Shown one piece after another: positions 1-8,202 of a stretch of DNA of 8,294 bases (position 1 is the first letter of the stretch; each line of letters opens with the position of its first letter). This DNA is from a virus (taxonomy: Duplodnaviria > Heunggongvirae > Uroviricota > Caudoviricetes). Below the pieces are notes generated by a model, which ran no database searches, was not told the origin of the DNA, and saw nothing but the letters and a program-made list of their open reading frames with translations. The stretch is from the IMG/VR virus record IMGVR_UViG_2531839532_000007, one strand, 5' to 3'. A program made the translations under genes and the position numbers.

Positions 1-306
1 GGCTAATGAAACACGGCAGTTTGCCCGGATGTTGGGGCTTGAACCGAAGAACACGGCGGTGCGGAGTCCGGAGAGTAACGGCATAGCAGAGAGCTTCGTG
101 AAAACGATAAAGCGTGACTACATCAGTATCATGCCTAAACCAGACGGGTTAACGGCAGCAAAGAACCTTGCAGAGGCGTTCGAGCATTATAACGAATGGC
201 ATCCGCATAGTGCACTGGGTTATCGCTCGCCACGGGAATATCTGCGGCAGCAGGCCAGTAATGGGTTAAGTGATAACAGGTGTCTGGAAATATAGGGGCA
301 AATCCA
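1..306 (+). mobile_element. Right-hand end of an IS2 insertion sequence (3' part of orfB plus terminal inverted repeat); element continues left of the window
   Basis: The 1..295 translation matches the IS2 InsD C-terminus as I recall it, and the sequence ...tggaaatataggggcaaatcca ending at 306 matches the IS2 terminus from memory. The downstream gene loses its N-terminus exactly at this boundary. Confidence 0.85.
2..295 (+). CDS. insD: IS2 transposase OrfB (InsD), C-terminal fragment; 5' end lies outside the window
   Basis: ORF 29..295 is in frame with the window start; the translation ...[55 protein letters not shown]... is the integrase-core C-terminus of IS3-family OrfB as recalled for IS2. 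Confidence 0.88.
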
Positions 307-608
307 ACTATTTAGCCACAGAGAATGTTCATATTGTATTAAAAAATGATAATACAGTGTTATTAAAGGGCCTAAAAAACATTGTGTCTGTCAAATTTTC
401 AAAGGATAGGCATCTTATAGAAACGACCTCTAATAAGCTGAAATCCAGAGAGATCACATTTCAGGAATACAGAAGAAACCTTGCTAAAGCAGGAGTTTTT
501 CGGTGGGTTACAAATATCCACGAACAAAAAAGATATTACTATACCTTTGATAATTCATTACTATTTACTGAAAGCATCCAGAAAACTACACAGATCTTAC
601 CACGCTAA
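307..608 (+). pseudogene. ydfO: DUF1398-family prophage gene (YdfO/YbcV-like), 5'-truncated by the IS2 insertion
   Basis: The open frame runs through the IS2 boundary; the 100 residues after position 306 (…[59 protein letters not shown]…) contain no Met. The only in-frame start is a GTG at 270 inside IS2. Symbol is assigned from Qin synteny (next to gnsB), from memory. Confidence 0.55.
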
Positions 609-4208: not shown

Positions 4209-4490
4209 TGAGATTGTGGTGCTTTTTGTGGGAGTCATCCACTTACGCACTTTGTTTTGCCATGCCAGCAGTTAGCTTCTGCTGTAAAACTATTCATGCA
4301 GCAAACCTGCACTTCACCACAATGGTTAGCATACTTTTCCTGATTAAGATTTTGCCAAATATGCTAGCCATTGTTTCATGTATTGGACCTCCTTACTTTT
4401 TATTAAAGAGATCCAATATTCACTACTCTGTCCGTATCTCTACTCAGGCATCAGCCTTCTTCGTTATCGTATACAGACGAGCGATGAATT

Positions 4491-4706
4491 TTAATCAGTA
4501 ATGATGACATTTGCTGCTGCAGGACCTTTAGCACCACTCTCTATAGAGAAGGTAACCTTTTGACCTTCAAATAAGGTTCGATAATTATCATTCTGAATCG
4601 CAGAAAAATGCACAAACACATCTTTACTACCATCAACAGGAGAAATAAAGCCGAAACCTTTATCAGCGTTAAACCATTTTACTAAACCAGTCATTTTATT
4701 TGACAT
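4491..4706 (-). CDS. cspB: Cold-shock protein CspB (CspA family, 71 aa)
   Basis: [71 protein letters not shown] with RNP motifs; AAGGAA Shine-Dalgarno upstream; divergent from cspF as in K-12. Confidence 0.95.
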
Positions 4707-4849
4707 TCTACATTCCTTAACTTGAGCCTTTCGGCATAAATGGTTTGCATAACAGAAACGACTTCGTACTTAATTGGAGAGACTCAAAGAAGGAATAAGT
4801 GAATAACACCTGAAATGAGAACTGCTTTAGTAAACTACTTCGTATATCG

Positions 4850-4902
4850 TCTGTTCTTCAAACCGACGCAATCATTAACGCATAGTTGAACATATGAAGC
4901 AA
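4850..4902 (-). promoter_or_regulatory. cspB promoter (-35 TTGCTT at 4902..4897, -10 GTTAAT at 4879..4874) with a cold-box-like element (TGAAGAACAGA, 4860..4850)
   Basis: 17-bp spacer and AT-rich UP-like region. The element just after the predicted start site matches the cspA cold box TGACGTACAGA at 9 of 11 positions. Predicted 5' UTR is about 160 nt. Confidence 0.45.
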
Positions 4903-6406: not shown

Positions 6407-7456
6407 TTACGCCAGTACGCCAATTGCCAGCGCGCGATCGATAAAACGAAATATCAGCTCCAGTTGGGAGCCATACTTATCTTCAAATGCCACTGTATCC
6501 GTATGCAGCTCGTTGTGATGCTTTCTGCACAAAGGCAACACAAAGAGATCATGTGCTTTTGTTCCCATTCCGCCCTGCCCGTGACCAATCAGATGATGCG
6601 GATCGTCGGCTGGCATACCGCAGCAAGCACACGGCTGTGTCTTAACCCAACGTGTGTATTTCTCCTTAACCCAGCGGCGACGTTTAGGCAGCTTCATGAA
6701 AGATTCCGGAGACTCTGGATCAACGGTGATGCTTACCACCGTCTTTTCCTGTGGTGATTTTTGTTGCTGGTGGGCGTAAGGCAACGGTGCAAGATTTTTT
6801 GTGCGTTGTTTCAATATGCTGGTGGCGGTCTGCTCTCCCGGTACGATGTCGCTTTCGCGGTACACCGAGCAGATTTTTTCCGCTGGTAATCCCAGCGAAC
6901 GACGCGATACAGCCTCAGGTAGTGCATCCACCACCTGATTGCAGACCGCCCACCAGGATAATTCAGCCAAAGATAATTCCCGCTCCTGCGTACCGCTTAT
7001 TGCGTGACGGATGACGTCAATCACCCATGCTGTCAGATTTTGTTGAGCAAGCAGCTCCAGTGATTCCGATGTCTGGTCACGCAGTTGGTTGTCGCAGTGC
7101 CAGCACAACACCATTGCGCCGGTACCATAACGGTGAATGACTGTTTCAGTGTGATGGTAATCGCCATTAGGCCACTGGCAGGATGTAACATGACGTAATA
7201 GCCAGTCGGACAATGCGCCAACGCCGCCAGCAGCACGAATCACCCGTTCGTTACTAAAAAACGGCAGCAATGTTTTGTCTTCCGCCAGCGGCTGGCGAAC
7301 GGCAGGAACGACTCCGGATGGCAGATTACGCATGCTTTTTGGTTCCGGTTCCACCAGCACTCGAGGATTATGAAATATCTGTATGGATTCACGGCCCGGC
7401 TTAAGGACCACCAGCCCAAGCTCAGGCACCAGAACAGGTCTAAGTAATACCCGCAC
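6407..7456 (-). CDS. ydfU: DUF968-family protein with C-terminal HNH/His-Me-finger-like motif (YdfU-like), 349 aa from GTG 7456
   Basis: C-terminal motif …QPCACCGMPADDPHHLIGHGQGGMGTKAHDLFVLPLCRKHHNELH… Strong GGAGG Shine-Dalgarno 4-5 nt before GTG 7456; the ORF-track start at 7495 is also a GTG but lacks a Shine-Dalgarno. Stop lies 13 nt before the Q start. Confidence 0.8.
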   Translation of the reverse strand: MRVLLRPVLVPELGLVVLKPGRESIQIFHNPRVLVEPEPKSMRNLPSGVVPAVRQPLAEDKTLLPFFSNERVIRAAGGVGALSDWLLRHVTSCQWPNGDYHHTETVIHRYGTGAMVLCWHCDNQLRDQTSESLELLAQQNLTAWVIDVIRHAISGTQERELSLAELSWWAVCNQVVDALPEAVSRRSLGLPAEKICSVYRESDIVPGEQTATSILKQRTKNLAPLPYAHQQQKSPQEKTVVSITVDPESPESFMKLPKRRRWVKEKYTRWVKTQPCACCGMPADDPHHLIGHGQGGMGTKAHDLFVLPLCRKHHNELHTDTVAFEDKYGSQLELIFRFIDRALAIGVLA

Positions 7457-7457
7457 G

Positions 7458-7736
7458 TTACCTCCAGATCCGTTGCTGGAAAGTGCGGGACGCACGTGGT
7501 GGGCGTTCGGAATAAGGCAGCCTGACAGAGATTATCCAGTGCCGATAGTCGAGACTGAGAGCTTTCTTAACCTCGAACCCGCGCCTGCGGTAAGAATGAA
7601 TCAGCCATTCGGCCTGTTCTGCAGTGCATGGAGGGTGCTGGAACCATTCAGACTTGAATGCGTGAGAATACCGCCCGTGCGTGCAGGCAAGAACGGGCGA
7701 ATTATCAGAATTGTAATATTTTGCGTTGCGTGCCAT
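7458..7736 (-). CDS. Hypothetical 92-aa protein translationally coupled to the DUF968 gene
   Basis: ATG 7736 with GGAG 8 nt upstream; the TAA stop (7458..7460) sits inside the ydfU Shine-Dalgarno (GGAGGTAAcGTG). Product MARNAKYYNSDNSPVLACTHGRYSHAFKSEWFQHPPCTAEQ… is Cys/His-containing; no family recognised. Confidence 0.5.
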   Translation of the reverse strand: MARNAKYYNSDNSPVLACTHGRYSHAFKSEWFQHPPCTAEQAEWLIHSYRRRGFEVKKALSLDYRHWIISVRLPYSERPPRASRTFQQRIWR

Positions 7737-7802
7737 CGGTTTTCTCCGGTGGCACGGTGTTACTCAGCGGGAGTTCAGCCCCGCGCAAGATTGTAGATGA
7801 GT

Positions 7803-8054
7803 TTATTCTCCTGAAAAAGCAGAAAAGCCAGCTTTTATTCCGATCTCTTTCAATGCCTGTAATGAAGTGACAAACTCACCTTCGCGCAAGATAAATCCGT
7901 CCGTGACCCGAGCATCCACAAAATTAATTAACGCAGCCCCATTCTTTCGCAAACACATAATGCGGTAATGACTAACAAGATTTCCATTTTCAACGCACAC
8001 AGCATAGAGGCCATCTTCACAAAAAATTTTACGCAGTTCTTCGATGTTCATCAT
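7803..8054 (-). CDS. rem: Rem-like small prophage protein (83 aa), function unknown
   Basis: ATGATG start with AAGGA 6 nt upstream. Length and position (between the hok toxin and ydfU) match K-12 rem as recalled; I cannot verify the sequence itself. Confidence 0.6.
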   Translation of the reverse strand: MMNIEELRKIFCEDGLYAVCVENGNLVSHYRIMCLRKNGAALINFVDARVTDGFILREGEFVTSLQALKEIGIKAGFSAFSGE

Positions 8055-8170: not shown

Positions 8171-8202
8171 AAAATAAAAACAAAAACCCGCCGAAGCGGG
8201 TT
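8171..8202 (-). terminator. Intrinsic terminator of the upstream (hok-containing) transcription unit
   Basis: Stem AACCCGC-CGAA-GCGGGTT; the minus-strand reading is followed by UUUUUGUUUUUAUUUU. It sits about 70 nt after the hok-like stop codon. Confidence 0.6.

Follow-up and report, generated by a model that had tools for sequence, protein, structure and literature searches.

ORF92, a small PHROG 1212 gene directly upstream of ydfU in the Qin prophage of Escherichia coli, is probably coupled to it in translation

Introduction

The DNA under study, a window of 8,294 nucleotides that comprises the whole stretch analyzed here, is a Qin-type cryptic lambdoid prophage of Escherichia coli. On its minus strand, an open reading frame of 92 codons (ORF92) ends directly ahead of ydfU, a gene with a DUF968 nuclease domain, and this closeness raises the question of whether ORF92 is a gene of its own that is translated together with ydfU or the detached N-terminus of a once longer gene. 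Both readings had been put forward in the initial annotation of the window. An identical ORF92 is present in E. coli K-12 MG1655 (NC_000913.3, positions 1,644,306-1,644,584, minus strand), whose curated record has no annotated feature between ydfU and rem, and PGAP annotates ORF92 in K-12-like and other E. coli genomes, e.g., as the identical RefSeq protein WP_012304870 ("hypothetical protein") in K-12-like strains. No mention of ORF92 was found in the literature searched, in which its family is undescribed, and the family is without a Pfam model.

Results

Organization of the locus

The gene order on the minus strand is rem, ORF92, ydfU, and ydfT/quuQ (Table 1). The ydfU product matched the Pfam model PF06147 (DUF968) with an E value of 1.5e-76 and PHROG 96 ("HNH endonuclease") over its full length, and it differs from YdfU of MG1655 in a single residue (Q versus L). 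PHROG 11007 covers YdfU residues 2 to 134, and a Cys/His cluster (C..HH...CWHCD) at residues ~103 to 136 (window about 7050-7150, minus strand), which lies in the N-terminal half of YdfU and outside the DUF968 match, has the appearance of another zinc-binding module or a degenerate HNH-like one. Elsewhere in the window, at 29-295 and 270-608 (both plus strand), the C-terminal end of an IS2-type (InsD-like) transposase abuts a truncated ydfO-like ORF; in MG1655, ynfO and ydfO are intact at the position of this junction, so that the window derives from a strain that is related to MG1655 but not the same. Two Rfam cspA-thermoregulator matches (1580-1965, 112.8 bits, and 4475-4867, 158.8 bits, both minus strand) each cover a prophage cold-shock gene (cspI, cspB) together with its 5' leader, and an intrinsic-terminator-like hairpin with a T-run upstream of rem (8185-8202, minus strand) probably terminates the hokD transcript.

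Table 1. Features of the ORF92-ydfU region (window coordinates)
Feature	Position	Strand	Description	Basis
rem	7803..8054	minus	83 aa; upstream neighbor in K-12-type loci only, outside the conserved module	
ORF92 Shine-Dalgarno sequence	7744..7747	minus	GGAG, 7 nt before the ATG	sequence
ORF92	7736-7458	minus	92 aa plus TAA; ATG 7736-7734, stop codon TAA 7460-7458	ORF list, sequence
N-terminal extension	7659..7736	minus	codons 1-26; absent from 66-aa members; predicted disordered, weakly constrained	
Conserved core	7461..7658	minus	codons 27-92; mini-domain and basic tail	AF2, dN/dS, family alignments
Two-frame open stretch	7457..7531	minus	75 nt, frames of ORF92 and ydfU; closed by TAA 7534-7532	
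ydfU Shine-Dalgarno sequence	7461..7465	minus	GGAGG, spelled by the final two sense codons (TGG AGG) of ORF92	
Junction TAA-C-GTG	7454..7460	minus	ORF92 stop, 1-nt spacer C7457, ydfU GTG 7456-7454	
ydfU	6407..7456	minus	349 aa; DUF968/His-Me-finger (HNH) nuclease domain in the C-terminal half	
ydfT/quuQ	6393-5641	minus	Q-type antiterminator	

Coding status of ORF92

ORF92 clearly is a real protein-coding gene under purifying selection. In 29 distinct nucleotide variants, the start codon was ATG 28 times and GTG once, and dN/dS was 0.25 overall, with values of 0.87 for codons 1 to 26, 0.14 for codons 27 to 67, and 0.10 for codons 68 to 92. Over the 66 codons of the core, which were compared in 25 distinct variants, the ORF92 frame was the only one of the six without a stop codon (17 to 125 stops in each of the remaining five) and had the lowest dN/dS (0.14, versus 1.9 to 2.2 in four alternative frames and 0.25 in the antisense frame with coinciding third positions). 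The good Shine-Dalgarno (SD) sequence with which the initial annotation had credited ORF92 was confirmed, and a purine-rich SD-like motif precedes the start codon in every divergent variant, even where the upstream sequence is different. Since the first 26 codons evolve in a nearly neutral manner, only the conserved start codon and the N-terminal indels, all of which are in frame in the variant alignment, speak for the translation of this extension. An antisense ORF of 137 aa (window 7383-7796, plus strand) was rejected as a gene, as it contains 17 stops in relatives and has a dN/dS of ~2.2.

The PHROG 1212 family

PHROG 1212, a phage protein family of unknown function with a 66-position profile, includes ORF92 on the basis of a full-length profile match (positions 1 to 66 of 66 against ORF92 residues 27 to 92; E = 1.7e-35, 121.9 bits). 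Shared between the two are a conserved Phe/Trp in strand 1, a Tyr in the helix, an Asp, a Leu-Pro pair, and the penultimate Trp; the extra N-terminal extension of 26 aa distinguishes the Qin-type ORF92 from typical members. The AF2 model of the core comprises a strand-helix-strand-strand mini-domain (residues 28 to 75; pLDDT of 92 to 96 over residues 30 to 70), which is followed by a basic tail that ends in the motif RTFQQRIWR, and the median pI of the family is 9.6. For residues 1 to 20 of the extension, the mean AF2 pLDDT was below 50. No Pfam or NCBIfam model matched ORF92 or 35 family members.

A search at 90% identity clustering yielded 129 clusters, all of them from Escherichia or Shigella, with a length of 90 to 92 aa for full-length representatives; the longest of all these clusters had 145 aa. 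Run against 1.84 billion representative proteins, a profile search retrieved 76 clusters, most of them stand-alone proteins of 66 to 69 aa that align to ORF92 residues 28 to 92. Only two long members were found among these 76, i.e., a 248-aa protein with the domain at its C terminus, which points to a fusion with an upstream gene, and a 338-aa protein that represents an internally repeated oddity. In phages, tblastn detected the family in 59 records, including Gifsy-2, mEp237, SPN3UB, PY54, phiES15, GF-2, an N15 homologue, and phages of Klebsiella, Edwardsiella, Hafnia, and Erwinia. The independent ORF has 90 to 92 aa in Escherichia and Shigella and 66 to 69 aa in other enterobacterial phages, and the Escherichia/Shigella lineage has gained the disordered extension of 26 aa on a core of ~66 aa, which accounts for the 92 aa of ORF92.

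Genomic context

An 801-bp stretch of this locus recurs in 4,332 of the 5,426 complete E. coli genomes, and in many E. coli genomes homology starts ~17 nt upstream of the ATG of ORF92 (query position 348, about window 7753). ORF92 and ydfU together form a unit in mosaic E. coli prophage regions with variable flanks: rem, other small ORFs, or hokD are located upstream, and on the downstream side RusA occurs in some loci only and Q belongs to one of three different families. Across the family, the gene immediately downstream encodes DUF968, RusA, NinG, YbcO, or Dcm. In 162 of 186 loci, which were fetched by similarity so that all of these context counts are biased, DUF968 followed within 2.5 kb, directly or after RusA; the arrangements found were DUF968 (71 loci), RusA then DUF968 (65), DUF968 then RusA (26), NinG (11), RusA (8), and YbcO then RusA (2), with none found in 3 loci. 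The order of the cassette is small gene, RusA, DUF968, and Q in Klebsiella-type loci (e.g., L129, 2501-4100) and small gene, DUF968, RusA, and Q in non-K-12 E. coli loci (e.g., L002, 2878-4579); Qin of K-12 is without RusA. In Gifsy-2, mEp237, phiES15, and Klebsiella phages, the family gene is located 0 to 5 nt downstream of an Orf/NinB-like gene (DUF1367, YbcN). In the ninR region of lambdoid and related temperate phages, the PHROG 1212 gene stands first in the cassette of DNA-junction nuclease genes located ahead of the Q antiterminator.

The junction between ORF92 and ydfU

The initial annotation had placed the stop codon of ORF92 inside the GGAGG of ydfU; in fact, the TAA adjoins this motif and sits in the 4-nt spacer TAAC before the GTG. 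This spacing is short, and the predicted anti-SD duplex has an energy of -10.7 kcal/mol. Of 28 distinct nucleotide variants of the Qin type, 27 share this junction and one has a C-to-T exchange in the spacer, and the codons TGG and AGG are invariant in 29 of 29 variants, although AGG is rare and the other Arg codons of ORF92 toggle. The pair thereby has two properties of coupled genes, i.e., a stop codon within a few nucleotides of the next start codon and a downstream SD sequence (GGAGG in 29/29 variants) that is conserved within the upstream coding sequence. A hairpin that would mask the ribosome-binding site (RBS) of ydfU can be predicted, but pairing of the RBS is no higher than in shuffled flanks, which favors coupling by proximity over coupling by unmasking.

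The same tendency is seen throughout the family, as the gap between stop and start codon is at most 2 nt, or the genes overlap, in most lineages. Where the downstream gene adjoins (gap of ≤2 nt), family genes end with TGG followed by AGG, GGG, GAG, GGA, or AGC, and the last 14 nt form anti-SD duplexes of -6 to -13.6 kcal/mol; in five lineages in which the next gene is 48 to 84 nt away, the ends are CAA/TTA/AAA-like with variable residues after the Trp, and the duplex amounts to -5 to +1.9 kcal/mol. The strength of the SD sequence thus tracks the adjacency of the next gene, which supports a role of the 3' end of family genes in SD function and reinitiation. Individually, the junction with RusA reads TGG-AGG-TGA-(AT)-GTG and that with NinG reads TGG-AGG-TGA-T-ATG or, as with YbcO-type nucleases, TGG-GGG-TGA-NN-ATG/GTG. 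Toward the cytosine methyltransferase (Dcm), it reads TGG-AGC-TGA-T-ATG or consists of an ATGA overlap, and a second branch of the family meets DUF968 through ATGA or TGATG.

Openness of two reading frames

The frames of ORF92 and ydfU are both open over 75 nt, where the initial annotation had counted about 74, and its calculation that a single indel would fuse them into a protein of roughly 440 aa holds, since a 1-nt deletion would give about 441 aa. Counted back from its GTG, the ydfU frame stays open for 75 nt in 27 of 28 Qin-type variants and for 66 nt in the other one, and an extra in-frame GTG (7495-7493) occurs in K-12-type variants only. The TAA that closes the stretch results from conserved Trp-Ile-Ile codons (TGG ATA ATC). 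An openness of at least 75 nt was retained in 82% of 20,000 synonymous recodings of ORF92; the stretch consequently carries no signal and is a by-product of the amino acid sequence that does not exceed chance.

Discussion

Two genes, and not one broken gene, are present at the ORF92-ydfU locus. It is highly probable that ORF92 is an independent small phage gene, the Qin member of PHROG 1212, which is coupled by proximity to ydfU. As judged from the sequence, ORF92 probably is translationally coupled to ydfU, and the conserved geometry of the junction looks selected. The codons TGG AGG of ORF92 double as the SD sequence of ydfU, and with the TAA located 1 nt before the GTG, a ribosome that completes ORF92 would terminate on top of the ydfU initiation site, where it might reinitiate, or keep the site open, at the weak GTG. 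We infer that translation of ydfU would depend on translation of ORF92. With two genes at the locus, ydfU truly starts at its annotated GTG. Of the "coupled partner" in the initial annotation, the conserved coupling geometry has stood the test, but not an exclusive partnership with YdfU, because the family also fronts RusA, NinG, YbcO, and Dcm; the range of junction designs rather supports the view that coupling is a family-wide habit. It may also be for the function of the protein, and not for the SD sequence, that the terminal Trp has been conserved. Altogether, the arrangement is ordinary phage gene packing, with nothing mechanistically surprising.

The idea that ORF92 is the detached N-terminus of a DUF968 gene of ~440 aa, split by a frameshift, draws on the two open frames that one 1-nt deletion would fuse and on a complete-genome assembly (CP178302.1) that actually reads from ORF92 into the ydfU frame. 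This assembly and a second one (CP178306.1) contain many frameshifts throughout the prophage region, and their merged frames probably represent assembly or sequencing errors or pseudogenization, whereas the openness is expected anyway from the recodings. No fusion to DUF968 was present among the 129 clusters obtained at 90% identity or the 76 clusters from the library of 1.84 billion proteins, in which the 248-aa and 338-aa members were judged without a DUF968 scan and neither has the architecture of ~440 aa with an N-terminal domain. A comparison of the small family with YdfU by hhalign gave a probability of 0.07%, so that no similarity to the N-terminus of DUF968/YdfU proteins was detected, and the PHROG 96 profile starts at YdfU residue 1. 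From the same residue, homologues share the motif (M/V)R.LL.P..ELGIV..PG down to low identity (mEp460, 58%; YeP2, 44%; Vibrio phage Pel, 30%; P1 PdcB, 26%); the genes that precede them, i.e., KilA-N, a deoxyribosyltransferase, and PdcA, are unrelated to ORF92, and no trace of the small family was found in six frames. About 186 phage records contain a YdfU homologue, 59 the small gene, and 23 both of them nearby, always as two separate pieces (23/23), and ~88% of the phage YdfU homologues are without an ORF92-family gene. Both outcomes that had been named in advance as speaking against a split gene were observed, namely, DUF968 homologues without an ORF92-like N-terminus and a conserved independent small gene, which moreover also precedes genes for RusA, NinG, YbcO, and Dcm. 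The detached N-terminus is hence refuted by the stand-alone family, the lack of DUF968 fusions in the libraries searched, and the shared N-terminus of YdfU proteins, and we consider its probability to be minimal. The same low probability applies to a programmed +1 (or -2) frameshift near the end of ORF92 that would add an ORF92-YdfU fusion to the two separate products. It could be based on the 66 to 75 nt by which the open ydfU frame reaches back from the GTG in each of the 28 Qin-type variants and on the little synonymous variation in the last seven codons of ORF92, but the former follows from the conserved amino acid sequence and the latter coincides with the RBS of ydfU. Furthermore, other branches of the family pair with a different downstream protein in a varying frame relation (gaps of 1 or 2 nt, 4-nt overlap), YdfU homologues work without any upstream partner, and neither an openness beyond expectation nor fused homologues were found; nor was a conserved shift-prone motif noticed in passing.

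That ORF92 is fortuitous and untranslated, the region serving ydfU just as a 5' leader or as a regulatory RNA, would agree with its absence from the curated MG1655 annotation and from Pfam and NCBIfam families. This explanation is nonetheless very unlikely, given purifying selection that is specific to the ORF92 frame, protein homologues of 30 to 50% identity in phages of Salmonella, Klebsiella, Yersinia, Erwinia, and Edwardsiella, and a confident AF2 core model (pLDDT above 90) that was obtained from the family alignment; in addition, no Rfam RNA family matched the ORF92 region, and the z-score of the local RNA fold was -0.19. Somewhat less improbable, but still unlikely, is that ORF92 serves the neighboring nuclease as a dedicated partner (inhibitor, immunity factor, or adaptor) or is the toxin of a Rem/ORF92 toxin-antitoxin pair. 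Gene order and coupling are typical of antitoxin-toxin or immunity-nuclease pairs, ORF92 and ydfU move as a unit within E. coli while their flanks vary, and an ORF92 homologue in one GenBank phage record (ON470583.1; L195, 801-1079) is labeled "toxin to Rem." The label is unsupported in the literature searched, however, many loci are without Rem upstream, no PADLOC model and only chance-level NCBIfam matches (E above 0.04) were obtained when Rem and ORF92 were examined as a type II toxin-antitoxin pair, and most phage YdfU homologues occur without ORF92. The downstream partners comprise a methyltransferase and members of four nuclease families that are unrelated or only distantly related, and this variety speaks against ORF92 being a specific inhibitor or immunity factor.

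With ORF92 regarded as an independent, proximity-coupled member of PHROG 1212, the production of a small basic protein just ahead of junction nucleases suggests an accessory role in DNA transactions or recombination, and a basic family next to RusA, DUF968, NinG, and YbcO would presumably act on DNA or recombination intermediates. A more specific proposal is that PHROG 1212 represents an accessory factor, either DNA/branch-binding or nuclease-restraining, that is made in a fixed ratio with the following RusA, DUF968/YdfU, NinG/Rap, or YbcO protein; we put this forward tentatively and rate it as rather doubtful. If true, it would be a previously unrecognized component of lambdoid phage recombination, and the position of the family before the RusA, DUF968, NinG, and YbcO genes is a lead for a missing accessory function in this process. 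Regardless of its role, ORF92 has been identified as a conserved protein-coding gene that the curated annotation of E. coli K-12 MG1655 lacks, and the build of the Qin nin region is settled in this part.

Among known systems, the pdcA-pdcB genes of phage P1 (L194, 1177-2448) resemble ORF92-ydfU in that a 66-aa ORF (PdcA) precedes PdcB, a full-length YdfU homologue of unknown function with 26% identity over 91% of the query. PdcA is unrelated to the ORF92 family, with which it gave an hhalign probability of 0.14%, and it is separated from pdcB by 27 nt and not by 1 nt. The synteny of the short nin genes is already known (PMC4118853), and DUF968, YbcO/DUF1364, and NinG are His-Me-finger nucleases linked to recombination (PMC5714182). 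The short ninR genes of lambda and P22 (ninD, ninE, ninF, ninH; ybcN-ninE-ybcO-rusA in DLP12) and the ORF92 family occupy the same slot, i.e., between an Orf/NinB-type gene and the junction nucleases and upstream of Q, with stop and start codons that overlap or nearly touch in both cases. Similarity between the proteins was not detected by hhalign (0.10 to 0.17% with lambda NinD, NinE, NinF, and NinH and 0.2% or less with NinB), and none of the 35 family members matched the Pfam models NinE or NinF; in position, the NinE slot of DLP12 corresponds to that of the ORF92-family gene after the Orf/NinB-like gene. Unlike coupling of the unmasking type, the ORF92-ydfU pair has no supported structure that masks the RBS, and its coupling is proposed here from the geometry of the junction. 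It is in this geometry that ORF92-ydfU resembles the classical translationally coupled pairs: the upstream ORF harbors the SD sequence in its final codons, its stop codon is close to the next start codon, and the arrangement is conserved.
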